A stretch of 62,705 nucleotides of DNA from Candidatus Woesearchaeota archaeon (lineage in GTDB: Archaea > Nanobdellota > Nanobdellia > Woesearchaeales > JACQSR01): positions 1 to 62,705 of the forward strand of contig JACQSR010000026.1 in assembly GCA_016211215.1 (NCBI GenBank), given 5' to 3'. The position numbers and the translations under genes were made by a program. Positions within the stretch are counted from its first letter, which is position 1; every line of letters starts with the position of its first letter. Below, piece by piece: positions 21-56,407 of this stretch. Below the pieces are notes generated by a model that worked only from the letters and a program-made list of their open reading frames with translations, did no database searches and had not been told where the DNA came from.

Positions 21-180
21 AGCTTTGTGTAAAAACTCGCTGCGCTCGGGGTTAGCAGCTTCGAGATTATTCTGTCTTCTGCATTAACCGACATTCCCCA
101 TAGGGATTCCCCCTTGTCGATGTTTATGTAATTGCAAAGAATCTCGACTTTGGCTGCTAACCTACTTTTTACACAAAGCT
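21..180. repeat. Long imperfect inverted repeat (160-nt hairpin); candidate structured ncRNA or MITE/REP-like element
   Basis: Nested complementary arms: AGCTTTGTGTAAAAA 21-35 with TTTTTACACAAAGCT 166-180; GGTTAGCAGC 50-59 with 153-162; TCGAGATT 61-68 with 140-147; CGACA 89-93 with 115-119. Confidence 0.8.
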
Positions 181-216
181 TATGATAATGGGAAGTTTTT
201 TATTGCAGTATGCAAT

Positions 217-1143
217 TTGGCAGTCAGCATGAAAATAAAAAAAAGAACAGTTAAAATTGCCCTGGTTGGACTTGCCATTATTGCAGCGCTATGGCTGGCA
301 TACTTTTACCAGAACAGAAACCCTTACAGCTTTGAAGGAGCATCATTTTCCTATTCCCAAGACCGGGGCAAGGCCGATTATCAAATCTCCCTGAAATCAG
401 AGAACAGCACATTCGACGTTTATGGCATAAACTTCAAAAGCAGGAATTTTCTCAGCTATGAAACAAGAATATACGGAATCCTTCTTATGCCGAAGGGCAG
501 TAAAAATGTCCCGGGCCTGGTGCTTCTTCCTGGCGGCGGTGTAAAAAAGGAATCGGAGATGAAGGTTGCGTCAAAGATTGCGGAGTTGGGGTATGCAGTT
601 CTCACTATTGACCAGCGTGGCATTGGCGAAACTGGGGGCTATTATCTAAACCTCGAGCAGGATTATGGGGTGTTTGCGCAGGGCAATGAGCCGATACAGC
701 ACCTGAGCGTGTATGATGCGTTAAGGGCATTTGACGTCCTCAGGTCAATGAACAATGTTGATAAAGGCAATATTGCAATTGCAGGCGAAAGCATGGGCGG
801 CAGGTACGCCATAATTGCGGCAGCAGTTGACAAAAGGCTTAAGGGAGTCATTGCAATCAGCACTTCGGGATTTAATGTGAAGGAGGAGGATACACCCTAC
901 AATTCCTATCTTCTGTCCATAGACCCTGACAGGTATATCGGAAAAATCTCGCCCAGAAGTGTTTTTATGCTGCACGGCACAAATGACTCAACAGTACCAT
1001 TGGATGCTGCCAGGGCAACTTTCAATCTTGCAAATGAGCCAAAGAAGTTCTACACAGCGGATGGGTGCGGGCACGGCTACTGTGATAAGATGCATGAAAC
1101 CCTTAATGAATCCCTTTCAGCCTTATTTGGGAGAAAGGTTTAA
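217..1143 (+). CDS. Membrane-anchored alpha/beta hydrolase (esterase/peptidase-like)
   Basis: N-terminal TM helix, LLPGGG oxyanion region, IDQRGIGET, GESMGG nucleophile elbow, HGTND and C-terminal GH; ATG at 229 is an alternative start. Confidence 0.8.
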   Translation: MAVSMKIKKRTVKIALVGLAIIAALWLAYFYQNRNPYSFEGASFSYSQDRGKADYQISLKSENSTFDVYGINFKSRNFLSYETRIYGILLMPKGSKNVPGLVLLPGGGVKKESEMKVASKIAELGYAVLTIDQRGIGETGGYYLNLEQDYGVFAQGNEPIQHLSVYDALRAFDVLRSMNNVDKGNIAIAGESMGGRYAIIAAAVDKRLKGVIAISTSGFNVKEEDTPYNSYLLSIDPDRYIGKISPRSVFMLHGTNDSTVPLDAARATFNLANEPKKFYTADGCGHGYCDKMHETLNESLSALFGRKV

Positions 1144-1169
1144 AAATCACTTCTGTGGTAAGTTGCTGA

Positions 1170-2657
1170 ATGGAGCTGAAAGTAAAGGATATGGACATCG
1201 CGACTGGAGGCCCTCTGGTTGTAATTCTCAATAAAGTTGACGCGCATCGTTATGACCTGCACAATCTTGACCGTATCATAGCCTCAAATGGCAGGAAAAA
1301 GGCGACCGTGATTCTGGACATAGCCGAAAGCGAAAAAGCAGTTCCCTCTGGCCGCATAGGCCTTTTCGAGGAAGTTCTTGCCGTTCTCGGCGCGAAGTCC
1401 AATGACACTGTGCGCATAAAGGTGTCAAGGAAGCCCGATTCAGTTTCCTTCATAAGGTCAAAGCTCGACGGCAAAACACTTAATCCTGAAGAGATAGACC
1501 AAATTGTTAAGGGAATTGTAAATTCTGAGCTTAGCGATGTTGAGCTGACATACTTTATTTCAGGTTGCTACACAAACGGACTTTCGAACAGGGAAACCAT
1601 AGCGTTGACAAGGGCTATTGTAAAGTACAGCGACAGGATAAATGTAAAGGACGGCCCGGTTTTGGACAAGCATTGCACCGGTGGCGTTCCGAACAACCGC
1701 ACAACCATGATTATTGTTCCCATACTGACGTCCCTTGGCTTTTACGTTCCAAAGACCTCTTCGAGGAGCATCACAAGCCCAGCAGGAACCGCAGACACCA
1801 TGGAGGTCCTTGCCCCTGTTTCTTTCCCAATCCCAAAGATTAAGGAAATCCTCAAAAAAGTCAACGGCTGCATAGTCTGGGGCGGCGGCTTAAACCTTGC
1901 CAGTGCGGATGACAAGCTGATAAAGCTCAGAAATCCATTGTATCTCGACCCCGAAGGCATGCTGCTTGCCTCCATTCTCGCAAAGAAGCTTGCCGTAAGC
2001 GCCACTCATGTACTGATAGACATTCCGGTTGGTGAAGAGACAAAAATAAAGTCAATGGCGCGTGCGTTCAGGCTGAAAAAGAGATTCGAGCACATAGGCA
2101 AAAAGCTTGGGATGAAAATATCCGTTTTCATTTCCGACGGCTCAGAGCCGATAGGGAATGGCATGGGCCCTGCCCTTGAGGCAAGAGATGTCCTTTACAT
2201 TTTGCGCAATGACAGGCGCGCTCCGTCTGATTTGAGGGAGAAATCAATAACAATGTGCGTTAAGATGCTGGAAATGCTCGGCAACCCCAATTCAAGGGAA
2301 GTGATTGAGCAGATTCTCAAGTCAGGAAACGCCTACAAGAAAATGATGCAAATCATAAAGGCCCAGGGCGGCAATCCGGATATACTTCCAGGTGATATAA
2401 AGCTTGGAAAATTCACTTATGACTGCAGGTCGAAAAAATCCGGAAAGCTTGTCAACATAGACAACAGGGTAGTTGCCAAGGTGGCAAGGATTGCAGGCGC
2501 TCCTTTGGACAAGGGTGCCGGGATTTACTTCTACAGGCATCGTGGTGATAAGATAAAAAAAAGGGATATTCTTTACACGGTCTATTCCGACAACAGCCAA
2601 CGCCTTGCATATGCAAAAGAAACCCTTAACTCCGCTCAGATGGTATACGTAGAATGA
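1170..2657 (+). CDS. deoA: AMP phosphorylase (thymidine phosphorylase family, archaeal nucleoside salvage)
   Basis: DKHCTGGVPNNRTT, KTSSRSITSPAGTADTME, QPIG-like EPIGNGMGPALEA, GAPLDKGAG, plus the N-terminal double-psi barrel extension typical of AMPpase. Confidence 0.92.
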   Translation: MELKVKDMDIATGGPLVVILNKVDAHRYDLHNLDRIIASNGRKKATVILDIAESEKAVPSGRIGLFEEVLAVLGAKSNDTVRIKVSRKPDSVSFIRSKLDGKTLNPEEIDQIVKGIVNSELSDVELTYFISGCYTNGLSNRETIALTRAIVKYSDRINVKDGPVLDKHCTGGVPNNRTTMIIVPILTSLGFYVPKTSSRSITSPAGTADTMEVLAPVSFPIPKIKEILKKVNGCIVWGGGLNLASADDKLIKLRNPLYLDPEGMLLASILAKKLAVSATHVLIDIPVGEETKIKSMARAFRLKKRFEHIGKKLGMKISVFISDGSEPIGNGMGPALEARDVLYILRNDRRAPSDLREKSITMCVKMLEMLGNPNSREVIEQILKSGNAYKKMMQIIKAQGGNPDILPGDIKLGKFTYDCRSKKSGKLVNIDNRVVAKVARIAGAPLDKGAGIYFYRHRGDKIKKRDILYTVYSDNSQRLAYAKETLNSAQMVYVE

Positions 2658-2932
2658 CAGACTGCAGGAAATGCGCGAAATGCTGTAAAAACGTCATTGT
2701 CATCCCGAACAAGCGGGATATAACGCCCATAGTCAATCTGGGCTTTAGTGGAAAAGACTTCCTCGCTAAGTTTGGGCCCCGCAGATGCAGCATCCTGGCA
2801 AGAAAGCAAAATGGCGACTGCATATTTCTCGAGAAAGACAAAATTTACTCCTGCAGAATTTATCCCTCAAGGCCCGAGGCGTGCAGAAAATATCCGTTCG
2901 GTGGAATTAAGGATTGCAGGGAATTATCCTGA
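2654..2932 (+). CDS. YkgJ-family cysteine-cluster (Zn/Fe-chelating) protein
   Basis: CRKCAKCC...CIFL...CRIYPSRPEACRKYPF; 4-nt overlap with the AMP phosphorylase stop. Confidence 0.8.
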   Translation: MTDCRKCAKCCKNVIVIPNKRDITPIVNLGFSGKDFLAKFGPRRCSILARKQNGDCIFLEKDKIYSCRIYPSRPEACRKYPFGGIKDCRELS

Positions 2933-3862: not shown

Positions 3863-4007
3863 GCAGTTGCCTTAATCTGTATTATTTAAATAGCTTGCCT
3901 TGCCTTATTAGTATATCAGTATACAAAAGAGTAAAGTTTATATACTAGTATTATCTTATCACCCAAGATTGGCAATTATGCTCTTCACAAGCTAAGAAGG
4001 TGGAAGA

Positions 4008-4733: not shown

Positions 4734-4734
4734 A

Positions 4735-5094: not shown

Positions 5095-5107
5095 ATTCAG
5101 CAAAGTT

Positions 5108-5495
5108 TTAATAGTGGGTTTCGTTTCGTTCTATTATGTCCGACATTACGCCCGGCCGTGAGCACCCATTTGTGGAAAAGTATCTAAACTATAAGACTCT
5201 TGATAAGGTGGTTTTTGGTGCATCTGCAGTAGGCTTTGGATATGTGCTTGGAATGGCGCAAAAGACTGGATTTGAGCTCCCTGAAGATACGAAGGCCATA
5301 CTTGCGGTAGCGCCAACAACTGTTTATGCTTGCCTGGATTCTCAGAGAAAAACAGATTTGCCTTTTAGATATCAGCTAACAAACTCATGCAAGAATCTCT
5401 TTAAGGGTGGGCTTCTAACCGCAATAGGATATGGATTGGGATATTTGCTAAATTAGGCTTTTTTCGTGGTGATTAAACGAAACGAGTTAATAGTG
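5108..5495. mobile_element. Possible mini-cassette: 9-bp direct repeats and 10-bp subterminal inverted repeats around one ORF
   Basis: TTAATAGTG at 5108-5116 and 5487-5495; TCGTTTCGTT 5121-5130 with AACGAAACGA 5476-5485. Confidence 0.4.
5136..5456 (+). CDS. Small hypothetical membrane protein with Gly-rich hydrophobic segments
   Basis: 106-aa ORF with VVFGASAVGFGYVLG and GGLLTAIGYGLGYLL segments. Confidence 0.55.
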   Translation: MSDITPGREHPFVEKYLNYKTLDKVVFGASAVGFGYVLGMAQKTGFELPEDTKAILAVAPTTVYACLDSQRKTDLPFRYQLTNSCKNLFKGGLLTAIGYGLGYLLN

Positions 5496-5591
5496 AAATC
5501 TAAAATAAAAAGTACGCCATCTTCAGTATTCTGACCCCCCAATAACCGTATCGCGATGGCCATAATCAATAAGCCTAACTAAATTATCGTA

Positions 5592-5673
5592 TTGCGGATT
5601 TACGCATAATATCTCTCATTTTACATATTTAGCTATGCGGATTTACGCATAGAAACAATGCGTAATTACGCAT
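5592..5673. promoter_or_regulatory. Three 16-bp palindromic operator-like sites upstream of the HEPN-MNT pair
   Basis: TTGCGGATTTACGCAT 5592-5607, ATGCGGATTTACGCAT 5635-5650, perfect palindrome ATGCGTAATTACGCAT 5658-5673. Confidence 0.7.
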
Positions 5674-5684
5674 TAAACCATAAC

Positions 5685-5695
5685 TTTTAAATATA
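5685..5695 (+). promoter_or_regulatory. TATA-box-like element for the HEPN-MNT operon
   Basis: TTTTAAATATA ending 22 nt before ATG 5717, consistent with a leaderless archaeal transcript. Confidence 0.5.
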
Positions 5696-5716
5696 GGTGG
5701 AGATTACGCCCCTATT

Positions 5717-6280
5717 ATGGCATCAATGGATGAAGTCAAAGCTTACTGCAAGGAATTATCGCCTCCTGATGTAGAGAGGGCAGTAAAATTCAACGAGGTT
5801 GCCAGAGATGAATCAATAATCTCTTATGGGATGTTTCTCGAGCAGAATAAGCTTCCAAGGCAGGTTTTTATCCAGGGTTACAATGCAATGTACGCAGCAG
5901 CAGCTTTGTTTTTAGCTAAAAAATACAAGGTAAAAGTTGATGAGCACATGGGTTCAACACATAAAAGAATGCGGGAAGTGCTCGATTTTTATACCAGTGA
6001 TTCTGAGCATCACCAAAAATTAATAGCGCTTTATGAGAAAGCAATCGAAAAATTCCAGATACTAAATCAACAGTACAATAGTGAAAAACACTTTGCCAGC
6101 AAGGTGGTAAGTGATTTAATGAGTGAGGGATTTTATCAAGGTAAAAAAGTTACATATTATGCTGAAATACCTCCTGGTAGAAAAGATCCCCTCACATTAG
6201 ACATACCTGATGCAAAAAAGTTTATCCGGGATATAGTAGAACCTTTTCTATTTATTATTGGTGAGCTTACAAATGCTTGA
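5717..6280 (+). CDS. HEPN domain protein (putative toxin)
   Basis: QGYNAMYAAAALFL helix and STH motif of archaeal HEPN domains; overlaps the MNT gene. Confidence 0.7.
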   Translation: MASMDEVKAYCKELSPPDVERAVKFNEVARDESIISYGMFLEQNKLPRQVFIQGYNAMYAAAALFLAKKYKVKVDEHMGSTHKRMREVLDFYTSDSEHHQKLIALYEKAIEKFQILNQQYNSEKHFASKVVSDLMSEGFYQGKKVTYYAEIPPGRKDPLTLDIPDAKKFIRDIVEPFLFIIGELTNA

Positions 6281-6875: not shown

Positions 6876-6928
6876 GGGCGGCAAGATTTATAGGGTGGGA
6901 GTTTAATGTGCCCATAATGGAAAAAGTA

Positions 6929-10415: not shown

Positions 10416-10462
10416 CTGCTGCAGGGACTAGCCATCAGTATAAAAACGTTGTTAAGAAAAAA

Positions 10463-10614
10463 TGCCCCGAACGAGATTTGAACTCGTGTCTTTGCCTATC
10501 TCCAATCGGGGGCTTGAGCGAAGCGAAACCCCCATGCATATTTTGGTCAAGCTTTTTGCATCGCAAAAAGATTGCGAGAGGGCAAAATGATTGGCCGGGC
10601 TACACTATCGGGGC
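10463..10614 (-). tRNA. tRNA-Glu(CTC) with a 77-nt intron at 37/38
   Basis: Acceptor GCCCCGA/TCGGGGC, anticodon stem TTGCC/GGCAA, T-loop TTCAAAT; 75 nt after splicing. Confidence 0.92.
10498..10574 (-). other. tRNA-Glu intron with bulge-helix-bulge and two internal hairpins
   Basis: Central helix CTCT/GGAG, bulges CG|C and AT|A, lower helix AATC/GATT; hairpins at 10552-10570 and 10508-10533. Confidence 0.85.
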
Positions 10615-10650
10615 ATTTTATACGGCAGAACTTACGAAGGGTATTTAAAA

Positions 10651-20112: not shown

Positions 20113-20253
20113 ATGGAACAGTTTCTCAGGACGGTGCGCAAGTCGGGGACGAGCTTCGCAGTAAACATACCCCCGGAAATAGTCAAGATGCTTTCCATTA
20201 GGGAGGGGGACATAGCCCGTATAACCATAGAGAAGGTAAAGAATGAAAGATAG
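20113..20253 (+). CDS. AbrB/MazE/SpoVT-family DNA-binding protein (46 aa), not in ORF track
   Basis: Manual translation MEQFLRTVRKSGTSFAVNIPPEIVKMLSIREGDIARITIEKVKNER. Confidence 0.8.
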   Translation: MEQFLRTVRKSGTSFAVNIPPEIVKMLSIREGDIARITIEKVKNER

Positions 20254-20827
20254 CATAGATGATTACCTGGGCAAAATAGTATCCGGCTCAGGAAAGGTGA
20301 AAAATCTGGAGTTTTCCGAGATAAAAAGGGAGGTTGATGAACTGGTGGATACCGAGGATGCTTTCAAGTCTTTTAGGCCTGCATTGTTTGGGGAGCAGGA
20401 GTTGGCACAAAACAGCGATGCCTTGCTCAAGCTCAGGATGCTTGTATCCCAGCTTAAAGAGAGGTCCGAAATAAACGAAAAGCTGGAGTCTTTGGCATAT
20501 TACCTGGGCCAGATGAGGTACTCGCTTTTTTCCCAGGACAAAAAATCCCTGAAAAAGGTGTTAAAAAAATTCCTTGATGATGACACCAACATACGCGATT
20601 TGCTCTCAGACATCCAGAAATTCAAGAAAGAGCTGGAGGATATTGAATCAGCCTATAGGGAGATAATAGCCGAAAGGAAGCTGCCCATTGATGTGTGGAT
20701 AAGCCATGTAACCTACCTTGAGCAGCAGCTAAAGCTTTTTTCAAGGATACAGGAGCGCCAGAGCAACATAGCATTCAACATAGGCAGATTGTTTGTGGGA
20801 ATGGCAAAAAAGGAGCTGAAGAAGTAA
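20243..20827 (+). CDS. Hypothetical all-helical/coiled-coil protein
   Basis: 194-aa ORF overlapping the AbrB gene by 11 nt. Confidence 0.65.
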   Translation: MKDSIDDYLGKIVSGSGKVKNLEFSEIKREVDELVDTEDAFKSFRPALFGEQELAQNSDALLKLRMLVSQLKERSEINEKLESLAYYLGQMRYSLFSQDKKSLKKVLKKFLDDDTNIRDLLSDIQKFKKELEDIESAYREIIAERKLPIDVWISHVTYLEQQLKLFSRIQERQSNIAFNIGRLFVGMAKKELKK

Positions 20828-20960
20828 TTTCTAATTGTAGAATGGTCACAATCACTTTTTAAGGCGATTATTAAGTTTTTCGCCTTTTATGAAAAGCTTT
20901 TTAAACCGAGTCCCTTTCTTCCACCCACAAAGACATAGAATTTTTTGGGGGAGTCTAAGA

Positions 20961-21881
20961 ATGCCTGAGCTGGTAAAGAAGTGTCCTGAATGCGCTGGTA
21001 TAAACTTATTCTGGAATCGCGACAAAGGAGAGATAATATGCAAGGACTGCGGGCTTGTAATTGAAGACAAGATGGTCGACTTCTCCCAGGAATGGCGCGA
21101 GTTTGATTCTGAAGATGGGGCAAGCAAGAGAAGGACAGGCGCCCCTTCAACTTACACCCAGTATGACCAGGGATTGGGCACTGAAGTTGGCCAGAAGGCT
21201 GATTTTATGAAGCTCGCCGGAAAGGATAGGAACAAGTTTTTCAGGCTTAGAAAGTGGCAGTACAGGATATCAACTGCAATCGAGAGGAACCTGAAGCTTG
21301 CGCTTGCAGAGCTTAAAAGAGTGTCTTCATACTTAAAGCTTCCAAAATCCGTTGAGGAGGAGTCTGCAAGGATTTACACTTTGGCAGTCCAAAGGGGGCT
21401 GGTTCGCGGACGTTCAATGGAAAGCGTTGTTGCCGGCGCGTTGTATGCCGCGTGCAGGCGCCATGACGTGCCAAGGACGCTGGACGAGCTTTCAGAGGCA
21501 TCGGGAATAGAAAAAAAGGAAATAGGGCGCACTTACAGGTTTGTGACGCGTGAATTGGGTGTTACAATTCTCCCATCAAACCCCGCTGATTACATTGCAA
21601 GATTTTCATCCTCACTGAAGCTGTCTGCTGAAACCCAGTCAAAGGCAGTTGAAATCCTCGAGCGCTCTCAAAAGGCTGAGCTTACTTCCGGGAGGGGTCC
21701 AACTGGAATTGCCGCTGCGGCTTTATATGTCTCATCATTGATACACGGCGAAAAAAGAACCCAGCGTGAGGTTGCAGACGTTGCAGGCGTTACCGAGGTA
21801 ACCATAAGGAACCGCTACAAGGAGCTTCTCGAGGAGCTTGACCTCGAAAAGGATATAAAGAAGACCAAGAAAAGAAGGTAG
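20961..21881 (+). CDS. tfb: Transcription initiation factor IIB
   Basis: Zn ribbon CPEC...CKDCG, EWREF, two cyclin repeats, TQREVA...VTIRNRYKE; start moved to ATG 20961. Confidence 0.97.
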   Translation: MPELVKKCPECAGINLFWNRDKGEIICKDCGLVIEDKMVDFSQEWREFDSEDGASKRRTGAPSTYTQYDQGLGTEVGQKADFMKLAGKDRNKFFRLRKWQYRISTAIERNLKLALAELKRVSSYLKLPKSVEEESARIYTLAVQRGLVRGRSMESVVAGALYAACRRHDVPRTLDELSEASGIEKKEIGRTYRFVTRELGVTILPSNPADYIARFSSSLKLSAETQSKAVEILERSQKAELTSGRGPTGIAAAALYVSSLIHGEKRTQREVADVAGVTEVTIRNRYKELLEELDLEKDIKKTKKRR

Positions 21882-21889
21882 CTATACTC

Positions 21890-21972
21890 AGCGACATAAA
21901 CAGTTATACAAGGTAGTATGTCGCTTCGTAATAAGCAAGTGACATTATGTATAGAAATTTGTGTCACTTGCT
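21890..21972. repeat. Twin hairpins between convergent tfb and MGMT genes
   Basis: AGCGACATA 21890-21898 with TATGTCGCT 21917-21925; AGCAAGTGACA 21934-21944 with TGTCACTTGCT 21962-21972. Confidence 0.65.
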
Positions 21973-22278
21973 ATATCTGAATCTGTGCAAAAATTTCTCC
22001 AGGTCTACAATCCCGTCCTTTATTGACACGCCTTCTTTTTCCAGAAGCTTAATCTTGGCATTTTTTCCGCCCTTTCCTGAATACCCGCCAACGCTTCCTT
22101 TGCTTTTAACAACGCGGTGGCATGGAACTTCAGGCGCATGGGGGTTTTTGCTTAGAGCAGTTCCAATCGCGCGGTAAGCCCTGCTGTTAATAGCATTTCC
22201 CAGCTCCTTGTATGTCGTAACTTTCCCCTTCGGGATTTCCCTGCATTTTTGCCACACCATCTCATGAAATGAAGCCAT
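21964..22278 (-). CDS. ogt: Methylated-DNA--protein-cysteine methyltransferase (short form)
   Basis: IPKGKVTTY, RAIGTAL, active site PCHRV. Confidence 0.9.
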   Translation of the reverse strand: MASFHEMVWQKCREIPKGKVTTYKELGNAINSRAYRAIGTALSKNPHAPEVPCHRVVKSKGSVGGYSGKGGKNAKIKLLEKEGVSIKDGIVDLEKFLHRFRYSK

Positions 22279-23061: not shown

Positions 23062-23828
23062 GCAGGGTCGTGAAGAAGCAGAAGATTGCAGATGGCACCT
23101 ACCTTCTGGAGCTGGAAGCCCCGGAGATAGCGAAAAAGATAGGGCCTGGCCAATTCGTCCTCATACGGCCAAAAGCACGAACAGAAGGGATATGCCTCCC
23201 GGTTGGAATCGTGAAAAGAAACACAATTTCGGTTGTGGTAAAAGGGGAAAACTCAAAGGTGCTTGCATCTTTGAAGAGCAATGACCACGTGAGCGACATC
23301 GCAGGCCCGATTGGCAACCAGACCTCAATAGAGGAGGTTGAAAATGTGGTATTCATATCCGATTCTTATGGTATCCCATCAATTTACAACATCGCCCAGG
23401 CATACAAGGACAGCAAGGTTCAGACATACATAATCATAGGCGATAAATCCAGGAAGTTTCTGTACTGGGAAGACAAGATGAAGGAAATTACCAACAAGAT
23501 AGTTATATGCACTGAAGACGGAAGCAGGGGCCACAGGGGAACTGTGCCTTCCAACCTGAGGAACATTCTTTCGGACTCCCAGTTTGAGCTTGCCATTGTT
23601 GCAGGAACTCCGTCGTTCATGCACGAAGTCTCAAAATTCACAAGGCAGAGGATAAAAACAAAGGCGGTGGTAAATCCCCTCATGATTGACCCAATAGGCC
23701 TCTCCGGAACATGCAGGATAAGGGTGGATGAAAAGATTAAGTTTGCAACCATCGACGGACCGGAATTCAATGCCCACTCGGTGGATTTTGATGAGCTCAG
23801 GGAGAGGATTGGCAGGGGGTTTGAATAG
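23058..23828 (+). CDS. NfnA/SudB-like (PyrK-family) subunit with degenerate cofactor motifs
   Basis: APEIA, PGQF, GP.G, DGPEF; the Fe-S motif reads MIDPIGLSGTC...FATIDG. Confidence 0.8.
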   Translation: MSRVVKKQKIADGTYLLELEAPEIAKKIGPGQFVLIRPKARTEGICLPVGIVKRNTISVVVKGENSKVLASLKSNDHVSDIAGPIGNQTSIEEVENVVFISDSYGIPSIYNIAQAYKDSKVQTYIIIGDKSRKFLYWEDKMKEITNKIVICTEDGSRGHRGTVPSNLRNILSDSQFELAIVAGTPSFMHEVSKFTRQRIKTKAVVNPLMIDPIGLSGTCRIRVDEKIKFATIDGPEFNAHSVDFDELRERIGRGFE

Positions 23829-28413: not shown

Positions 28414-29225
28414 GAACTGCCCTCGGGGAAGAGGAAGAAAATCTTCTTTGACAGCTTTCCGTCGAAAGTATCCCTAACGGTCTCTGCAACATAATTGTAA
28501 GTCCCGTCCTCATTTTTTGTTGTCTTGACGCTTTTCTTGTACTCATAATCCACCCTTAAGGTGACCGCCCTTTCCTCCTCGATTAATGGCGCCTGGTATG
28601 TGATTGGCAGTGAAACCGAGTATGTGTCCTGCAGCTGCTCAAAAGACCCGCTTAATCCGTCCTTGGCTCCGAAAAGGGTTTGGCCGTCTATGAGCTTTAC
28701 TGCCGTAATCTTTATGGGGTACTCAAGGCCCTCCTTCTCGTCCTTAAGCTTAAACGAAACGTCCACCTTGTCCTTGCCAACGGTAAATGGATTGTTGAAT
28801 TTCACAAGAATCTCAACGGTAAAGAAGGAAAGCTCCTTCTCAAATGTAAGGTCGGTACTCTTTACCCTTTTTTGGTCAACAGCATAAACGCATGAATTTG
28901 ACACGCAACCTTTTTCAAGGTAAGTCGCATCAACCTTCTTCCCCTTTATGAGCATGGCAGCCTTGCCATTGCACTCACCATAGTCTTCAGGGCACGTGCA
29001 TTCGTTGCCCGGCTTTCCATTCTCAGTCTTTTCCTTTATTGCATTCCCGCAGCAGTCCTTTTGCGCAGTATATGTGCACTTACCTTCATCACAGGAGGTT
29101 GATTTGCATGCACTCCCTCCCGCGCAGTCAACGGCATCCTTGCATTCGCTGCATCCTGCTATAACTGCCACAACCACAAGCAAAAATGCAATGAGAACCA
29201 CGCGCTTTAACCTAATCTTGAACAC
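28410..29225 (-). CDS. Cys-rich secreted lipoprotein
   Basis: Lipobox VIAGC followed by about 12 Cys (CCGN, CTCPEDYGEC) and a beta-rich C-terminal domain. Confidence 0.7.
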   Translation of the reverse strand: MFKIRLKRVVLIAFLLVVVAVIAGCSECKDAVDCAGGSACKSTSCDEGKCTYTAQKDCCGNAIKEKTENGKPGNECTCPEDYGECNGKAAMLIKGKKVDATYLEKGCVSNSCVYAVDQKRVKSTDLTFEKELSFFTVEILVKFNNPFTVGKDKVDVSFKLKDEKEGLEYPIKITAVKLIDGQTLFGAKDGLSGSFEQLQDTYSVSLPITYQAPLIEEERAVTLRVDYEYKKSVKTTKNEDGTYNYVAETVRDTFDGKLSKKIFFLFPEGSS

Positions 29226-30617: not shown

Positions 30618-30723
30618 ATAAACCCCTATGTGAGTCGTATCTCCATGGTTACACTTTATAAATATTTCGATAACTTCCACAGAAAAGTAAAGCTTTTTAA
30701 AATTCAGAACGAACTAAAACTTT

Positions 30724-31392
30724 ATGGCAAATAAATGGGCTATCGCAGATAAACTCAACAACCTTTTCTTCCATCCGGCTGCATTCTTCAAGTCTGTTGA
30801 AAAGGAAAAGGATTACTGGCCCATACTCATGTTCTTCTTCGTTTTTTCGGTCATTGCAACCCTAATTCAGCTCGTTGCTCCCTCACCTTACTTATCCCAG
30901 GACAATGTGCCTTCCTTTCTAATCATTTTTGGATTTTTTTTCTCCATATTCTGGTCTTTTGTTTACCCTTTCATCGCATCGGGCATAATCCACCTTGGGG
31001 TTCTTATATTCGGCGGAAGGAATGGTTTTTTCAACACGTTTAAGCCCATAACATATGTTCAGGTCATTGGAATCTTTTACGCTCTGCTGTCCACCCTGAT
31101 ATTGAGTATTCTCAACACATTTTGGCCCATTGCAGTAACTCCCGAAGACCCGCTTTCGGTATTTACCACCCCGGTTTTTTCATCCCGCCTGGCGCTTGCC
31201 CTCCTGATATCTTTCATTTCAATGGTCCACCAGCTCGTTGCAGCAACCCTGGGCATATCCAAATTCCAGGGCTTTTCCCGCGCAAGGGCATTTGTTGCAG
31301 TCGTCCTGATGCCAGCAATTCTTCTGATACTTCTTGGAATGATTATCGGCGCTGCAATTGTGGCTATGCTTGCCGGCCTAGGAAACATTTAA
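30724..31392 (+). CDS. Yip1-family membrane protein
   Basis: HPAAFFKSV start, five hydrophobic helices, IIHLGVLIFGG. Confidence 0.7.
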   Translation: MANKWAIADKLNNLFFHPAAFFKSVEKEKDYWPILMFFFVFSVIATLIQLVAPSPYLSQDNVPSFLIIFGFFFSIFWSFVYPFIASGIIHLGVLIFGGRNGFFNTFKPITYVQVIGIFYALLSTLILSILNTFWPIAVTPEDPLSVFTTPVFSSRLALALLISFISMVHQLVAATLGISKFQGFSRARAFVAVVLMPAILLILLGMIIGAAIVAMLAGLGNI

Positions 31393-34836: not shown

Positions 34837-36078
34837 ATGACATCAAGGAAAAAGTCTGCAGGCAAAGAAGAATACATCCAGCCTGTTATCAATATAGGCA
34901 TGGTTGGCCATGTTGACCACGGGAAAACTACCCTGCTTGAGCGCTTGTCCGGAAAATGGACAGACACGCATTCCGAGGAAATCAAGAGGGGTATCACAAT
35001 ACGGCTGGGTTATGCAGATGTCGTTTTTCGCAAATGCCCCAAATGCGGCGAGTTTACAACTGAAGATGCGCATTGCGAACCGACTGAATTTTTGAGAAAA
35101 GTAAGCTTTGTTGACGCGCCTGGCCATGAATCACTGATGGCAACCATGCTTTCCGGAGCTACGATAATGGACGGCGCATTGCTGCTGATTGCTGCAAATG
35201 AGGAATGCCCCCAGCCGCAAACACGTGAGCATCTAATGGCGCTTGAGGTTATAGGCGTTAAGAACATAATCATTGTCCAAAACAAGGTTGATTTGGTAAG
35301 CGAGGAAAGGGCCACAAAGAATTATGGGCAGATAAGGGATTTCATAAAAGACACATCTTTCAAGGATGCCCCAATAATACCATTATCCGCGCAGTATCGT
35401 CTGGGTGTGGGGCCTTTGATACAGGCCATAGAGGAGTTTATTCCCACCCCCAAGCGCGATTTGGACAAGGACGCAATGTTCTTTGTGGCCAGAAGTTTTG
35501 ACATAAACAAGCCCGGTACAAAAATAACTTCATTGGTTGGCGGGGTTCTTGGAGGGGCAATAAAGCAGGGCAGGCTAAGGAAAGGGGACGACATAGAGAT
35601 AAGGCCCGGGTTTGAGTTCGAGGAGAAAAATCAAAAGGTGCGCAAGTCCATACATACCAAAATTGCATCCATAAGGACCGGGGGCATTGATGTTGAGGAA
35701 GCGGTTGCCGGCGGCTCACTCGGCATTCTGACAACCCTGGACCCTTTTGTTGTGAAAAGCGACAAGCTTACCGGTTCTGTTGTCGGGCATCCCGGAAAAT
35801 TGCCTCCTGTTTGGGATAGCTTCGACTTTGAAGTCCATTTGCTGAAGCGCGTTGTTGGCTTGAAGGAAGACCTGATAGTTGAGCCCATAAAGATGAATGA
35901 GCCATTGATGCTTAATGTCAATTCCGCTGCAACAGTTGGAATGGTGACGGAAGTAAAAAAAGACAGAATATCCTGCAAGCTCAAGATTCCCGTGTGCGCG
36001 GAAAAGGGCTCTCGCGTCACAATCTCCCGAAGAATAACCAACAGGTTCAGGCTGATTGGGTACGGCATAATCAAATGA
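34837..36078 (+). CDS. eif2g: Translation initiation factor 2 gamma subunit
   Basis: GHVDHGKT, RGITIRLGY, DAPGHE, QNKVD, RLIGYG. Confidence 0.97.
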   Translation: MTSRKKSAGKEEYIQPVINIGMVGHVDHGKTTLLERLSGKWTDTHSEEIKRGITIRLGYADVVFRKCPKCGEFTTEDAHCEPTEFLRKVSFVDAPGHESLMATMLSGATIMDGALLLIAANEECPQPQTREHLMALEVIGVKNIIIVQNKVDLVSEERATKNYGQIRDFIKDTSFKDAPIIPLSAQYRLGVGPLIQAIEEFIPTPKRDLDKDAMFFVARSFDINKPGTKITSLVGGVLGGAIKQGRLRKGDDIEIRPGFEFEEKNQKVRKSIHTKIASIRTGGIDVEEAVAGGSLGILTTLDPFVVKSDKLTGSVVGHPGKLPPVWDSFDFEVHLLKRVVGLKEDLIVEPIKMNEPLMLNVNSAATVGMVTEVKKDRISCKLKIPVCAEKGSRVTISRRITNRFRLIGYGIIK

Positions 36079-52894: not shown

Positions 52895-52945
52895 CTTGCT
52901 ACGGAAAAGCGCCTGCCAGTCTTTAAAAACTTTTTGATGCCCCGC

Positions 52946-53581: not shown

Positions 53582-53635
53582 GCCGGCAAAGCTTATTTCC
53601 CCCTTTATAAGACTTTAATACCACTATGTCGTGAA

Positions 53636-54817
53636 TTAAAGCAGGCTTCCGACAAGGTAGAAAGAGCCTGTGACAAGTATCAGTGAATCTTTGCCGGCAA
53701 TCTTCTTTGCTGCATCAAACGCAGCTAAAGGCTCATTCTCAACCCTATGCCTGATTCTGCTTCCAATGTAATCCGAAACAATCTTCGGTTCAAGCGCCCT
53801 TTGGTTTTGGGGGGTTGTAAGGACAAGATAATCAGCGCATTCCACAAGTTTGTCAGCCATGCTTTTCCAGTCTTTGTCGTTCAGCACACCAAAAACTGCA
53901 ACTATGTGCCTTTTTTCGTTCTTTTTCAGGTAATCAACAAGGCATGAAACTCCGGAAGGATTGTGGGCAACATCAAACAGCACATTTCCCCGATAGTATA
54001 GCCTGCCTTTAAGGATAACATTCATCAATGCATCTTTAATATCCCTTTCCGAAAAAATTAATCCTGTTGCCTTAACAGCCTCAACTGCGATGCCTGCGTT
54101 AATCTCCTGGTAATCCCCAAGCAGATTTGTCCTGTAGTTTTTGTCTGCCACTATGACCTTCGAGCCCCGCAACTCTGCAGTCTTTTTTATTATGTCAAGC
54201 ACAATATTGTTCCTCGCGCCAGTTACTACACCGGTATTGGGTTTTATTATCCCGCATTTCTCTGTTGTAATTTCCTCAAGCGTGGTTCCAAGTATATTGG
54301 TATGCTCGTAATCCACCATGGTTATTACAGAAACTATCGGCATTGAAACGTTTGTAGCATCCAATCGGCCGCCTAATCCGACCTCCATTACCGCATAATC
54401 AACGTTCTTCTCCGAAAAAAGAAGGAAAGCCATGCATGTTATAATCTCGAAAAAAGTCTGGTCTGTAATATGGGGCCTGACCTTGTTGAAAACCTCAAGA
54501 ATTTCATCGTTGCTTGCCTCTTTTTGGTTTATCGCAAATCTCTCATTGAATGAAACTAAATGGGGTGAAGTGAACATCCCTACGCTGTACTTCCTGCCCA
54601 TGATGGAGGAAATCATTGCGCACACGCTTCCCTTCCCGTTGGTCCCTGTGACGTGAATTACCTTCAGCTTCAAATGGGGGTTTCCGATTTTTTCAAGAAG
54701 CTTCTCAGTCCTTTCCAGTCCAAAATTCCACTTCTTTTCCGCATCAATGTTGTACAGGTAGCCGAGCATCCCTTCGTAATCCATGCCCTCATGGGTTGCA
54801 TCAGAATTAATAAACAT
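53636..54817 (-). CDS. folC: Folylpolyglutamate synthase/dihydrofolate synthase
   Basis: HVTGTNGKGS, FTSPHL, EVGLGGRLDATN, DVAHNP; ATG 54784 is an alternative start. Confidence 0.95.
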   Translation of the reverse strand: MFINSDATHEGMDYEGMLGYLYNIDAEKKWNFGLERTEKLLEKIGNPHLKLKVIHVTGTNGKGSVCAMISSIMGRKYSVGMFTSPHLVSFNERFAINQKEASNDEILEVFNKVRPHITDQTFFEIITCMAFLLFSEKNVDYAVMEVGLGGRLDATNVSMPIVSVITMVDYEHTNILGTTLEEITTEKCGIIKPNTGVVTGARNNIVLDIIKKTAELRGSKVIVADKNYRTNLLGDYQEINAGIAVEAVKATGLIFSERDIKDALMNVILKGRLYYRGNVLFDVAHNPSGVSCLVDYLKKNEKRHIVAVFGVLNDKDWKSMADKLVECADYLVLTTPQNQRALEPKIVSDYIGSRIRHRVENEPLAAFDAAKKIAGKDSLILVTGSFYLVGSLL

Positions 54818-55499
54818 TCAGTATTTTATCCACTTCACCTTGCTCCAAGTCCCTGAACTGCCCAGGCTTTACCCCGCTTAGGGTTACTGGCCCTATTGCA
54901 ACCCTTACCAGGGAATTAACCGTGTACCTGAGGGAGTTCAATATGGCTTTCATGGTTTCCTTGCTTTCATGCGTAGTTATCTCCACATTCTTGCCAGAAA
55001 CCCGGACATTTGCAGGGTAGCTCTTTTTCCCATTCACAAATACACCGTTGCGTATCCTCTCGGCGTGCGTATTTGACAGCCTCTTGTCGAGCTTAAGCCG
55101 GTATGTTTTCTTAATCTCGTACCTTGGGTGCATTATCCTGTTGGCAAAATCACCATCGTTTGTCAGAAGTATCATGCCCTCTTCCCTTTGCTCGAGTTTT
55201 CCAACCGGAATAAGCCTCTCCCTAACCCCCTTTTGCCTGAGCACATCAATCACGGTGCCCCTTCCTTGCGTATCCCTAATCTCGGAAAGGAGGCCCTGCT
55301 GCTTGTTGAAAAGTATGTACCTTTTCCGTTCAAGGGCAATTCTGTCCCTGCCAACTTCTATCCTGTCCGTAATCTCCGCCTTATCTCCCAGCTTTATGAC
55401 AATTCCATTTACCTTTACCTTTTTGGCCCTGATCAATTCTTCAGCGTCGCGCCTTGAACAGAACCCCGAATTTGCAATTATCTTCTGCACCCGTTCCAT
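54807..55499 (-). CDS. RsuA/RluB-family pseudouridine synthase homologue with S4 domain; catalytic Asp replaced
   Basis: S4 domain (SRRDAEELI), FNK..G, LLTNDG, HPRYEIKKTY; GRLD motif reads GKLE. Confidence 0.85.
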   Translation of the reverse strand: MERVQKIIANSGFCSRRDAEELIRAKKVKVNGIVIKLGDKAEITDRIEVGRDRIALERKRYILFNKQQGLLSEIRDTQGRGTVIDVLRQKGVRERLIPVGKLEQREEGMILLTNDGDFANRIMHPRYEIKKTYRLKLDKRLSNTHAERIRNGVFVNGKKSYPANVRVSGKNVEITTHESKETMKAILNSLRYTVNSLVRVAIGPVTLSGVKPGQFRDLEQGEVDKILNVY

Positions 55500-55588
55500 A
55501 AGATTAAAACACCCTCATCAAAGTTTATATAGATTGCCCATCCACATCCATGAAAAGCTTATTATAGTTATTTCCAGTACGGGTCCTT

Positions 55589-55804
55589 ATGAAACAGACC
55601 TGCCCAAAGTGCGGCTCCAGCAACATAACCTTTTCGGTTTACGACGGCGCACAGATTGTTACCTGCAACGAATGCAGCTATGATGAGTCACAGGACCTTG
55701 AGGTTTACCCTGAAGAAAGGGGCACACAGAGGGAAAAGGCGAGGCAATCTCCATACAAAAGGGGAGGCCACTCGAGGTCAGCCGGAAAAAGAAAAACCCC
55801 CTAA
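55589..55804 (+). CDS. Small Zn-ribbon protein
   Basis: CPKCGS...CNECSY with a basic tail. Confidence 0.65.
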   Translation: MKQTCPKCGSSNITFSVYDGAQIVTCNECSYDESQDLEVYPEERGTQREKARQSPYKRGGHSRSAGKRKTP

Positions 55805-55884
55805 CGAAAAAACCTTAACTGCCTTACTGCAGAACTCATTATTAAACTTTGCCTTTTTTAGGGTGTGAATGTGTATACTGTTGC

Positions 55885-56247
55885 CTATTTGTGTACCTTG
55901 CCGTGCTTCCCGGGTATTTTCTTTCCTATGGCCGAAAAGAGATGCGCAAAAAGGAAAATCATCACTGCCGTAAATGTTACCCTCAGCAACAGGAGCTCCC
56001 TGAAGAACTGGAACATGGCAGAAATGAATGACGTCTTTGAAAGCACGAGCACAAAGGTTGCAAAAATCATCGAAAGGATATAATAAGGATACAATCCTCT
56101 TTTCTTTATGTCTCCCGGAATCCTGAATGCAAGAATGGCCAGTATTGCAAAATTAATCACAAAAACAAGCAAAGAAGAAGTGATAAACGGGAAAAGCACT
56201 ATGATGGCGAAGGCAATCAACGCCGCAATCATGATAAACTCAATCAT
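55885..56247 (-). CDS. Small hypothetical membrane protein
   Basis: Four hydrophobic segments. Confidence 0.6.
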   Translation of the reverse strand: MIEFIMIAALIAFAIIVLFPFITSSLLVFVINFAILAILAFRIPGDIKKRGLYPYYILSMIFATFVLVLSKTSFISAMFQFFRELLLLRVTFTAVMIFLFAHLFSAIGKKIPGKHGKVHK

Positions 56248-56293
56248 GACCGTCCTTTTTTCGGATTCTATTTAAAATTTTCTGAAAAAAATC

Positions 56294-56407
56294 TGCGGAG
56301 TGCAGGATTCGAACCTGCGTAGGCACTAAGCCAACAGGTGTCTTCTTATCATCGCTTTCGCTCAACACACCTAAGCCTGTCCCGTTTGGCCACTCCGGCA
56401 ACTCCGC
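56294..56407 (-). tRNA. tRNA-Leu(TAG) with a 30-nt intron at 37/38
   Basis: Acceptor GCGGAGT/ACTCCGC, anticodon stem ACAGG/CCTGT, variable arm, GGTTCGAATCC; 84 nt after splicing. Confidence 0.92.
56340..56369 (-). other. tRNA-Leu intron containing TTGAGCGAAAGCGA
   Basis: TGTGTTGAGCGAAAGCGATGATAAGAAGAC; relaxed BHB. Confidence 0.8.

Follow-up and report, generated by a model that had tools for sequence, protein, structure and literature searches.

A DNA mini-hairpin module appears to cap, or to form a side branch of, hairpin-shaped mobile DNA in Woesearchaeota, a reading to which we give about an even chance (probability roughly 0.5). The window analysed is the whole of contig JACQSR010000026.1 (62,705 nt) from a Candidatus Woesearchaeota archaeon (GCA_016211215.1), the genome of which is 1.06 Mb in size and ~9% non-coding (9.2% by crude ORF calls). 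The module, 5′-GA-GC-GN(N)A-GC-GA-3′, would comprise a two-base-pair GC clamp, a loop closed by a sheared G.A pair, and tandem G.A mismatches acting as a brace. One carrier is an order-wide family of ~26-nt hairpins (apex CTTGAGCGNAGCGAAA) that appears to have been copied into tRNA introns, leaders and trailers and into intergenic DNA; another is a 160-bp MITE. The mini-hairpin may act in single-stranded or extruded DNA, either as a nuclease-resistant cap that nucleates folding or as a recognition point for transposition or recombination.

The tRNA-Glu(CTC) gene lies on the minus strand (10462-10615; ARAGORN with intron search) and is interrupted at the canonical 37/38 position by an intron of 77 nt (10498-10574, boundaries from ARAGORN); orthologues occur in G002 and G003. 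The intron is laid out as CAAUC, hairpin 1 (CUUUUUGC-GAU-GCAAAAAG, 10552-10570, minus strand), GCUUGACCAAAAU, hairpin 2 and GAUUGGAGAU. In G016 and G002 hairpin 1 together with CTTGACCAAAAT is also combined with different apexes of hairpin 2. On the purine (plus) strand hairpin 2 reads GGGGG-CTTGAGCGAAGCGAAA-CCCCC (10508-10533), with a conserved 16-nt apex at 10513-10528. Read directly from the sequence, the apex contains the core GCGAAGC (10518-10524, plus strand), a GC clamp with a GNA triloop that matches the d(GCGNAGC) described in PMC13037366 and is flanked by GA at 10516-10517 and 10525-10526. G000 and G002 differ by a compensated change that leaves the stem intact, and the apex is identical except for N. 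The intron may be a short ancestral one that is now made up of the hairpin module; the tRNA would be unharmed because splicing removes it.

The sequence d(GCGNAGC)/d(GCGNNAGC) is an extraordinarily stable DNA mini-hairpin studied by Hirao and co-workers (review Kimoto & Hirao 2026, PMC13037366). According to that review the structure forms only with GNA triloops and with GNNA loops that include GTTA, and the DNA form melts at 76.5°C compared with only 39°C for r(GCGAAAGC). The review also reports examples from sites that function in single-stranded form (the phage G4 origin, ssiA and the N4 promoters), and states that standard folding models miss the structure. Nearest-neighbour folding of the archaeal hairpin finds no special stability in either strand.

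The hairpin of the Glu intron belongs to a family. The sequence TTTCGCTNCGCTCAAG, with at most one mismatch, is present in 93 of the 301 genomes from the order (Woesearchaeota), where it has ~176 matches and the reversed control has 21. In a search of 185,579 species the matches fall mainly in Candidatus Woesearchaeota and Nanoarchaeota MAGs. Members have a 5-bp stem of variable sequence and the almost invariant 16-nt apex. Both sides of the stem are changed in 53 cells, compared with 22 ± 5 for shuffled data (none of 500 shuffles as high), and because the stem covaries the family is one of hairpins. Positions of the apex are conserved in 43-47 of 47 copies, including G8, A10 and the GC pairs, with the exception of N, which is free (A 32, T 8, C 4, G 3). 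This conservation follows the mini-hairpin rule, with G, A and the GC pairs fixed and N any base. The further conserved bases (CTT...AAA) are unexplained by the stability of the mini-hairpin alone. Members occupy introns that differ in tRNA and in position, and they also occur in the leaders and trailers of tRNAs, in intergenic DNA and as tandem arrays. Only one or two copies with an intact apex occur in most genomes, a pattern that resembles purifying selection on some host function more than it does the decaying relics of a transposon.

An earlier note on this DNA had grouped five sites as one family on the basis of a recurring word, and proposed a count of that word over the genome against a Markov background, with coding and non-coding DNA compared. 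As plain words the two 14-mers in the tRNA introns are barely above chance. GAGCGWAGCGA (at most one mismatch) has three matches in the window with 1.16 expected, a number reached in 12 of 100 shuffles. Over the genome a 13-mer (at most one edit) has six sites with 2.3 expected, and an 11-mer (at most one edit) has 32 with 20-23 expected. A repeat search of the window detected no repeat family. It is the structural motif 5′-GA-(GC)-GN(N)A-(GC)-GA-3′ that is strongly in excess of chance. The pattern GA-[GC or AC]-G-N(1-2)-A-[GC or GT]-GA has 22 sites in the genome, ~7- to 10-fold more than the 2.3-3.2 found in Markov simulations, with six for the reversed control. At least 20 of the 22 fall outside the crude ORF calls, in a non-coding fraction of 9.2% (binomial P ~4e-19, calculated on sites of which ~12 are copies of one MITE and hence non-independent).

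These counts bear on the view that there is no common function at all, with GC-rich, GA-flanked mini-hairpins recurring in hairpin loops by chance or mutational bias and the resemblance of the Glu, Leu and MITE sites a coincidence. The lack of significance of the two 14-mers as plain words agrees with it, as do carriers that are mechanistically unrelated and a Leu motif that demonstrably belongs to another family (see below). It is difficult to reconcile with the excess and the almost wholly non-coding placement of the structural pattern, with a G...A closure kept in three MITE subfamilies, and with a 16-nt apex that is near-invariant in ~176 copies spanning many families in >90 genomes, plus bacterial repeats. 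For the Glu-type family it is largely refuted, and taken as a whole we regard it as very unlikely.

The second carrier lies at the start of the window, where positions 21-180 (no strand assigned) are one old copy of a foldback MITE of 160-165 bp with terminal inverted repeats AGCTTTGTGTAA / TTACACAAAGCT. At least 12 copies occur in this genome and three in G003. The inverted repeats are of 12 nt, and four copies have perfect 9-bp target duplications; the 21-180 copy has none that is recognisable. The element has a folding z-score of -7 and contains no ORF, and several copies end ~10-20 nt upstream of a TATA-like box. The mini-hairpin forms a side arm, GA-GC-GCA-GC-GA (37-47, minus strand), and the word CTCGCTGCGCTCG at 36-48 is a true member that every copy of the MITE retains, a change of GC to AT being compensated. 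The arm takes the form GC-GNA-GC, its compensated version AC-GNA-GT, or GC-GNNA-GC, and its loops include GTTA, GTCA and GTAA.

The remaining sites have other origins. The tRNA-Leu(TAG) gene (56293-56408, minus strand; ARAGORN with intron search) has a 30-nt intron (~56340-56369), and intron-bearing orthologues occur in six other genomes. In the sense of the tRNA the intron contains UGA-GC-GAAA-GC-GAUGA (56349-56364, minus strand), identified by comparison of orthologues as a C/D-box-like tandem G.A hairpin. Across the orthologues xUGAGC...GCGAUGAU is invariant and the loop is variable (GAAA, AGAAUUCU, UAUAC, CAAAUAAG and UAAU). The anticodon intron of tRNA-Met(CAT) in this genome contains a motif of the same class. 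The Leu word is a look-alike, an RNA-level UGA...GAUGA hairpin with a GAAA loop by chance. The words TTGAGCGAAGCGAA (10514-10527) and TCGCTTTCGCTCAA (56352-56365) do lie in the Glu and Leu introns, and are opposite in sense relative to their tRNAs, both genes being on the minus strand. The other two words are at chance level: TCGCTTCG (21921-21928) is a bare 8-mer lacking the GC-GNA-GC core, with ~2 expected in the window, and the core is also absent from the inverted repeats TCGTTTCGTT at 5121/5476. The recurring word is real and the observation partly confirmed; the five sites are not one family, and comprise the order-wide hairpin (Glu), the MITE, a distinct RNA motif (Leu intron) and two words due to chance.

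The earlier idea of a small mobile hairpin-loop element colonising tRNA introns and intergenic gaps is supported, in that an element with a conserved apex is found in those places and behaves as mobile DNA. A survey of introns in relatives had been suggested, and the same module is present there in different tRNAs at different positions. In this genome and in G002 the same module, ~60 nt long, constitutes the intron at 37/38 of tRNA-Glu; G001 and G004 have it inside the D-loop of a different tRNA, and in alignment it is missing from the tRNA-Glu of G003. It is present in a T-arm intron in G014, in G273 it is scattered between and beside housekeeping genes, and it occurs as tandem arrays next to duplicated 3′ ends of tRNAs. 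These placements indicate that the hairpin module has moved.

The earlier note had also taken the element to be independent of orientation and on that ground recognised as DNA. The independence is contradicted: relative to the tRNA, hairpins are pyrimidine-sense in introns and leaders and purine-sense in trailers (Fisher p = 0.0025). Folding at the DNA level is the reading that fits best, the core being that of the d(GCGNAGC)/d(GCGNNAGC) mini-hairpin. Since the RNA sense of the intron is the pyrimidine strand, the purine mini-hairpin cannot act in that RNA. Beside IS200-type tnpA genes (G087, with two copies, G273:C110 and G118:C75) the purine strand is in the sense of the transposase, and by our reading it would be the bottom strand of attC-like sites in G268. 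Strands of these kinds are known to function as single-stranded DNA.

With orientation tied to the tRNA context, a role at the RNA level in pre-tRNA processing is conceivable. The motif would then be an L7Ae or K-turn-like protein-binding or processing hairpin in the introns, leaders and trailers of pre-tRNA, kept by selection for tRNA maturation, and its resemblance to the DNA mini-hairpin incidental. At least 36% of the hairpins are within 220 nt of a T-arm, the Leu intron retains UGA-GC...GC-GAUGA in six families, in the sense of the tRNA and around a variable loop, the Met intron has its like, and the compensated change in the Glu stem leaves the apex unchanged except for N. However, one RNA-binding specificity cannot serve both the pyrimidine strand of introns and leaders and the purine strand of trailers, and many copies are intergenic or within the MITE, IS ends or attC-like sites. 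Two of the MITE loops, GTTA and GTCA, fall outside the GNRA class, the RNA mini-hairpin is weak (Tm 39°C in PMC13037366), and no match was found in Rfam. The Glu-type hairpin, as read from its sequence, is not a K-turn because it lacks a 3-nt bulge. This explanation is on balance improbable.

A more specific version of the preferred DNA mini-hairpin reading is that the hairpins are single-strand substrates of an HUH (Y1) transposase, as ends or non-autonomous derivatives of IS200/IS605 and an archaeal counterpart of REP/RAYT, with peel-and-paste movement at replication forks. In both G087 copies a hairpin with the same apex lies ~90 nt 3′ of the tnpA and 8 nt short of where the repeated unit ends; in G273:C110 it is ~170 nt 5′ of a decayed tnpA in a unit of four copies, and in G118:C75 ~30 nt 3′ of tnpA. 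The purine strand is the tnpA sense in all of these, and we estimate that ~0.1 such adjacencies are expected by chance. Bacterial look-alikes carry the REP-typical GTAG/CTAC tag and are found as inverted doublets. Against this, the HUH/RAYT transposase that the earlier note expected to co-occur was not found: over 301 genomes Y1_Tnp is unrelated to the presence of the motif (odds ratio 0.82, p = 0.51), with both in 29 genomes compared with 31.8 expected, and 64 of the 93 motif-bearing genomes lack it. Y1_Tnp, TnpB and DDE_Tnp_1 are all absent from this assembly. The GTAG tag is missing from the archaeal copies, scoring places the neighbouring Y1 proteins with IS200/IS605 TnpA and not RAYT, and no such hairpin occurs at the other Y1 loci examined. 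Moreover the MITE carries the core, and its inverted repeats and 9-bp target duplications indicate a DDE-type transposase. We consider HUH transposition unlikely. Given how far the carriers differ in mechanism, from a MITE that has target duplications to ends like those of IS200, attC-like sites and introns, the shared core may be convergent and not one system. The interpretation of the earlier note is partly supported.

Among the closest known systems is the mini-hairpin itself. The core is identical (GCGAAGC in Glu, GCGAAAGC in Leu, and GCGNAGC or GCGNNAGC in MITE copies), and in the archaeal sequences N is free and the GC clamp is fixed, as are G and A, as a sheared pair would need. It differs in being embedded in a longer conserved apex (CTTGA...GAAA) on a variable stem, and in its setting of archaeal mobile hairpins and tRNA introns, which does not feature in the parts of PMC13037366 consulted; the AC/GT clamp of some MITE copies is absent from the variants in Table 1 of that review. 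Bacterial REP/REPIN sequences with RAYT are likewise short imperfect palindromes scattered in non-coding DNA, and GTAG-tagged bacterial repeats share the same 16-nt apex, whereas the archaeal copies, without tag or RAYT, usually number one or two per genome and are often inside or beside tRNA genes. The hairpins of G087, G273 and G118 resemble IS200/IS605 subterminal hairpins in their subterminal position next to a tnpA of IS200 type, the purine strand having the sense of the transposase, but they are few of ~176 copies, with no genome-level link and no tnpA in this genome. The 21-180 element is similar to IS5/IS903-type MITEs in its length, 12-nt inverted repeats, 9-bp duplications, copy number (at least 12) and lack of an ORF; unlike them it folds as a whole into a single long hairpin from which a conserved mini-hairpin branches as a side arm, and has no matching transposase in the assembly. 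Box C/D (K-turn) modules are known in archaeal tRNA introns, for example as the guide RNA of the tRNA-Trp intron. The Leu and Met introns share a D-like UGA and a C-like GAUGA, which could flank a short capped stem with sheared G.A pairs in tandem, but have one half-motif in a 30-nt intron, with no evident guide and no 3-nt bulge beside the stem. Finally, the transposed tRNA introns of Thermoproteales, reportedly described by Fujishima and colleagues in 2010, are also near-identical introns at different positions of different tRNA genes, and such placement implies gain by movement. The host here belongs to another phylum (DPANN, Woesearchaeota), and the unit is a small hairpin module with a defined conserved apex that is also found in intergenic DNA, tandem arrays and tRNA trailers, and nests inside other hairpins.

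Both of the long words that the earlier note had assigned to tRNA introns are present in the window, at 10514-10527 and 56352-56365. The first lies within tRNA-Glu(CTC) (c[10462-10615], 77-nt intron) and the second within tRNA-Leu(TAG) (c[56293-56408], 30-nt intron), both found by ARAGORN with intron search; the intron boundaries are those of ARAGORN only, and default ARAGORN and Rfam find only one of the window's tRNAs. Since both tRNAs are encoded on the minus strand, the transcripts contain UUCGCUUCGCUCAA in the Glu intron and UUGAGCGAAAGCGA in the Leu intron, and the two words do run in opposite orientation relative to their tRNAs. As plain words, the evidence for a motif is weak. Allowing one mismatch, GAGCGWAGCGA matches the window three times where 1.16 matches are expected, and three are also reached in 12 of 100 shuffles. 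Each 14-mer is single copy in the whole assembly (1.06 Mb in 35 contigs, of which the window is C18), the 13-mer with up to one edit has six sites there against 2.3 expected, and a repeat search within the window finds no repeat family. Two further places that had been grouped with these words, 21921-21928 and 5121/5476, are explained by pure coincidence. The interval 21870-21975 is occupied by two adjacent hairpins between convergent ORFs (20889-21881 on the plus strand and 21964-22278 on the minus strand); these do not contain the core described below and may be gene-end structures.

With the tRNA-Glu locus as query, a DNA search of 40 relatives gave matches confined to the intron, at different loci and in other genomes. 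Every matched locus that was read has the same hairpin, with a variable stem of 4-5 bp around TTTCGCTNCGCTCAAG; it corresponds to the second hairpin of the tRNA-Glu intron and is termed Glu-type. With up to one mismatch, the pattern of its apex occurs in 93 of the 301 genomes sampled from the order, giving about 176 matches, many of them exact, against 21 with a reversed control. Most of these genomes have one or two copies, with 14 in G273, 11 in G268, eight in G220 and seven in G181. In a scan of 185,579 species, one genome each, the matches are mainly in Candidatus Woesearchaeota and Nanoarchaeota MAGs, and include the complete genome GW2011_AR15, so that the order is very probably Woesearchaeales. 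The stem covaries in a set of 43 sequences with unconstrained flanks, where 53 cells show change on both sides and shuffles give 22 ± 5 (none of 500 as high), and the score falls in slid registers.

The purine strand of the apex reads C-T-T-G-A-G-C-G-N-A-G-C-G-A-A-A. Each position is conserved in 43-47 of 47 sequences, except for the first (39/47) and N (A 32, T 8, C 4, G 3). The clamp at positions 6-7 and 11-12 is G (46/47), C (45/47), G (47/47) and C (43/47), and the loop bases are G8 (43/47) and A10 (46/47). Coincidence, sufficient for the two isolated places in the window, is an unlikely origin for the hairpin family. Rfam, applied to the window at the gathering threshold and to 18 loci including the element at 21-180 in E-value mode, returns tRNAs only and no family for the hairpin, and a literature search for the 14-16-nt strings gave nothing relevant. 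A hammerhead ribozyme on the purine strand was rejected, as CUUGA is not CUGAUGA. A K-turn was likewise rejected for the Glu-type hairpin, which has no 3-nt bulge and is a straight rod owing to its U-A and tandem G.A pairs.

The centre of the purine strand is GC-GNA-GC, with GA on both sides. In the window GCGAAGC is located at 10518-10524, and GCGAAAGC at 56354-56361 on the minus strand, both read from the sequence. The review by Kimoto and Hirao (PMC13037366) describes a DNA mini-hairpin motif, GCGNAGC or GCGNNAGC where N is any base, with a Tm of 76.5 °C and remaining folded in 7 M urea. According to the same review only GNA works among all 64 triloops, the tetraloops accepted are GBAA, GABA and GTTA, and the RNA counterpart r(GCGAAAGC) melts at 39 °C. 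Such sequences are stated there to occur where DNA acts single-stranded, at the phage G4 origin, ssiA and the N4 early promoters. Conservation in the Glu-type family follows exactly the mini-hairpin rule, with G, A and the GC clamp fixed and N free. Nearest-neighbour DNA folding gives -4.8 and -5.8 kcal/mol for the two strands and does not separate them; the lack of special stability agrees with PMC13037366, according to which standard folding models miss the structure. GCGAAGC and GCGAAAGC, the two classic variants, differ by the same extra A that distinguishes the Glu word from the Leu word. The reading that we favour, with a probability of about one half, is that the motif is a DNA mini-hairpin module of elements that depend on folded single-stranded or extruded DNA. 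It alone would cover the Glu-type family, a side arm of the element at 21-180, IS200-like ends, attC-like sites and bacterial repeats.

The tRNA-Leu intron is different. In six other genomes, which represent several families, the orthologous introns of tRNA-Leu(TAG) retain xUGAGC...GCGAUGAU, while the loop between the GC pairs varies (GAAA, AGAAUUCU, UAUAC, CAAAUAAG and UAAU), so that the mini-hairpin rule is broken. The motif fits an RNA hairpin in which a D-like UGA and a C-like GAUGA form the clamp. As it belongs to this separate UGA...GAUGA class, the 13-of-14 match between the Glu and Leu words reflects shared architecture (tandem G.A pairs, GC clamp and G...A loop), not shared descent. 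Outside the window, on contig C25 of the same genome (about 5540-5800, minus strand), a tRNA-Met(CAT) missed by ARAGORN contains both kinds of hairpin. Its 44-nt anticodon intron has a C/D-like hairpin of the Leu class, UGA-GGC-GUAA-GCC-GAUGA, and its T-loop intron of ~150 nt holds a decayed Glu-type hairpin, GTGGGA-TTTCGCTTTGCTCAAT-TCCCAC, the core of which is mutated to GCAAAGC and which is the second copy of that hairpin in the genome. About seven further UGA-stem-loop-stem-GAUGA sites are located outside tRNA introns in this genome (C2:7451, C3:78836, C20:72550, C20:78698, C25:22531, C25:52630 and C34:1390); from their sequences these may be K-turn or C/D-type RNA motifs.

When the count is made with a structural pattern, GA-[GC/AC]-G-N(1-2)-A-[GC/GT]-GA, the window's own genome has 22 sites against 2.3-3.2 (maximum 8) in order-3 and order-5 Markov simulations, and six for the reversed pattern. 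Eighteen of the 22 are within the 9.2% of the genome that is non-coding by crude ORF calls. The four called coding include the Leu intron and one copy of the element at 21-180, and therefore at least 20 of 22 sites are non-coding (binomial P about 4e-19, where about 12 of the sites are copies of one element). Thus the non-coding enrichment that the earlier note had proposed to look for is found with the structural pattern.

That element, at 21-180, is a foldback MITE that recurs in the same genome and in G003, a genome of the same genus. At least 12 copies of 160-165 bp, all without an ORF, are present in the window's genome: besides 21-180 these are at C2:~1020-1185, C3:~28548-28710, C3:~41697-41860, C3:~45650-45815, C9:~37825-37990, C13:~23540-23705, C13:~30680-30845, C13:~35190-35350, C15:~20225-20390, C20:~75220-75385, C20:~98900-99065 and C29:~13990. 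The terminal inverted repeats are 12 nt, GGCTCTGTAGAA or GGCTCTGTCCTG. Target duplications of 9 bp are perfect at C2, C9, C13:30698 and C20:75237 and imperfect at other copies, and that of the window copy has been lost. Several copies end ~10-20 nt upstream of a BRE/TATA-like CTTTATATA box. The mini-hairpin is a side arm in every copy, ~12 nt in from one end and facing a 3-nt bulge. It takes the forms GC-GNA-GC, AC-GNA-GT (a compensated pair) and GC-GNNA-GC, with loops GCA, GTA and GGA, or GTTA, GTCA and GTAA in the GNNA version. Folding of the element is much stronger than that of shuffles (z = -7), Rfam gives no match to it, and for a partner IS with the same ends, DDE_Tnp_1 (PF01609) is absent from the assembly, which is 84% complete. 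The word CTCGCTGCGCTCG, proposed as a variant of the tRNA motif, is real; because the 21-180 element is a MITE with inverted repeats and 9-bp duplications, the word belongs to a DDE-type MITE and not to the Glu-type family.

The Glu intron is a module of ~60 nt, comprising CAAUC, hairpin 1 (CUUUUUGC...GCAAAAAG), GCUUGACCAAAAU, hairpin 2 with the apex, and GAUUGG. It is at position 37/38 of tRNA-Glu in the window and at the same site in G002, of the same genus; in G003 the intron at this site is only ~19 nt and lacks the module. Comparison of G003 with G002 indicates replacement, not simple insertion, and a clean empty site was not recovered. In G001 (same genus) and G004 (another family) the module, with 87% identity to the window intron (E = 6.5e-17), is in the D-loop of a different tRNA, which reads by eye as tRNA-Arg(UCU) with further introns; the identities of all multi-intron genes were read in this way. 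Hairpin 2 is also found in a T-arm intron of tRNA-Glu(UUC) in G014. In G016 and G002, hairpin 1 with CTTGACCAAAAT is joined to other hairpin-2 apexes, once reversed, in T-loop and anticodon introns of other tRNAs (L027 and L030 on G016:C37 and G016:C38, and L028 on G002:C36). The introns are therefore modular and nested.

The module is not confined to introns. Copies in G273, some of them in tandem, separate housekeeping genes (SRP54, CoaBC, thioredoxin reductase and others), and the genes beside the high-copy hairpins of G273 and G268 are ordinary housekeeping or miscellaneous, with no transposases. Directly 3′ of tRNA genes at L022 (219-375, G011:C47) and L057 (1451-1830, G121:C2) there are hairpin units that each end with the last 13-17 nt of the tRNA; those of L022 are flanked by duplicated tRNA 3′ ends, and L057 has at least three in tandem. 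These arrays resemble the product of repeated site-specific integration of an element of ~60-83 bp. Hairpin arrays also occur upstream of a tRNA at L039. A CRISPR-like array was rejected for the tandem units, as the whole unit repeats and there are no variable spacers.

A strict test, which misses split T-arms, finds an intact T-arm within 220 nt of 29 of the 80 non-redundant archaeal hairpins; the expectation, estimated from ordinary tRNA gene density, is ~0.02 per 440-nt interval. Hairpins 5′ of the T-arm, in an intron or leader, are pyrimidine-sense in 11 cases and purine-sense in two, and those in the 3′ trailer are pyrimidine-sense in four and purine-sense in 12 (Fisher p = 0.0025). The sense thus depends on the side of the T-arm, and the orientation independence that the earlier note had taken to indicate recognition at the DNA level is wrong as stated. 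This bias relative to the tRNA suggests a role of the motif in RNA, as does the apex that is intact even in genomes with one or two copies. Yet the intron RNA is the pyrimidine strand, where the mini-hairpin cannot form, and we consider an RNA-level role unlikely.

A more specific version of the DNA mini-hairpin reading would have the hairpins mobilised by an HUH transposase. Three local cases are suggestive. In G087, in two copies, the hairpin follows an IS200-type tnpA at ~90 nt on the 3′ side, with 8 nt left to the end of the repeated unit; on G273:C110, in a unit of four copies, it precedes a decayed tnpA at ~170 nt on the 5′ side; and on G118:C75 (L203), a GC-rich contig, a variant, REP-like hairpin is ~30 nt 3′ of an IS200-type tnpA. 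The purine strand is the transposase sense in all three, and adjacency to tnpA is seen only in these. The version fails at the genome level, however: Y1_Tnp (PF01797) is present in 103 of the same 301 genomes, of which 29 also carry the motif where 31.8 would be expected (odds ratio 0.82, p = 0.51), so that the association with an HUH/RAYT transposase suggested by the earlier note is not borne out. The Y1 proteins examined score as IS200/IS605 TnpA and not as RAYT (REP-associated transposase), and TnpB (PF07282) is absent from the window's genome. On this balance an HUH mover is doubtful. G118 is a Woesearchaeota MAG, and the composition of C75 suggests a mis-binned bacterial contig.

The DNA mini-hairpin would also cover hairpins of two other kinds. 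In G268 the apex is central in same-orientation repeats spaced 1.2-2.5 kb apart between unrelated genes (peptidase C25, PLD-like, deaminase, asparaginase and HAD hydrolase) at L064-L066 and L068, on contigs C38, C39, C21 and C51. By inspection the repeats have attC-like boxes (xxTAAC ... TAAAC ... GTTTA ... GTTA), and the purine strand is the bottom one. Going by these R''/L''/L'/R' boxes alone, the arrays may be an integron-like cassette array in a Woesearchaeota MAG; integrons are known from archaea (PMC9668308). Some 30 bacterial loci (L089, L093, L096, L097, L099, L123, L124, L128, L129, L131, L148 and others) have hairpins with the same 16-nt apex that precede CTAC(G) and are frequently arranged as inverted doublets. 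They belong to Xanthobacteraceae, Bradyrhizobium, other Alpha- and Gammaproteobacteria, Pseudoalteromonas and Acidobacteria, and are REP/REPIN-like. GTAG-tagged hairpins of GC-rich bacterial genomes have an apex identical to the archaeal 16-mer (CTTGAGCGNAGCGAAA). To our knowledge this identity has no published description.

In Woesearchaeota, modules capped by the mini-hairpin would colonise tRNA genes, where splicing would make them harmless. A bolder proposal, which we offer tentatively and regard as rather speculative, is that GA-GC-GN(N)A-GC-GA might be the core for folding and recognition in an undescribed process of single-strand DNA transposition or recombination, common to bacterial REP-like repeats and DPANN archaea, that creates and enlarges Woesearchaeota tRNA introns by inserting hairpin modules removed by the splicing endonuclease. 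Were this the case, it would become possible to test directly where non-canonical archaeal tRNA introns come from. The observations bear on how archaeal tRNA genes gain many introns, often oddly placed. The module is caught in three states, as introns of different tRNAs and positions, in tRNA flanks and free between genes, and close relatives differ in having it. Its conserved apex is a sequence known chemically as an exceptionally stable DNA mini-hairpin and also occurs in bacterial REP-like repeats; it is a concrete, assayable candidate for the structure on which such elements depend, and its pattern is a search tool for tracing intron gain across DPANN genomes.

Compared with known systems, the archaeal hairpins differ from REP sequences in having variable flanks where the palindrome of REPs has GTAG at its foot; CTAC ends are confined to the bacterial look-alikes. 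Nor does the window's genome have a RAYT gene flanked by REPs, as it contains no Y1_Tnp match. Glu-type hairpins do not co-occur with a Y1 HUH transposase at the genome level more than expected, as would IS200/IS605 elements. Those elements insert 3′ of a fixed target of 4-5 nt without duplicating it, and the duplicated tRNA 3′ ends of L022 and L057 can be read as either kind of insertion. The Leu intron conserves UGA and GCGAUGA; set beside a box C/D K-turn, where a C box RUGAUGA and a D box CUGA form tandem G.A pairs next to a 3-nt bulge, it has no bulge by the GC stem and one half-motif only. The 21-180 element has the terminal inverted repeats, target duplication, high copy number and lack of an ORF that characterise MITEs. 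The GC...GC clamp order of d(GCGNAGC)/d(GCGNNAGC) is kept in the Glu-type family and replaced by AC...GT in one MITE subfamily, while GNA or GNNA loops with fixed G and A occur in both. Finally, like mobile archaeal tRNA introns, the module is found as a homologous intron in different tRNAs and positions (the window, G002, G001, G004 and G014), and is present or absent between close relatives, G003 being without it.
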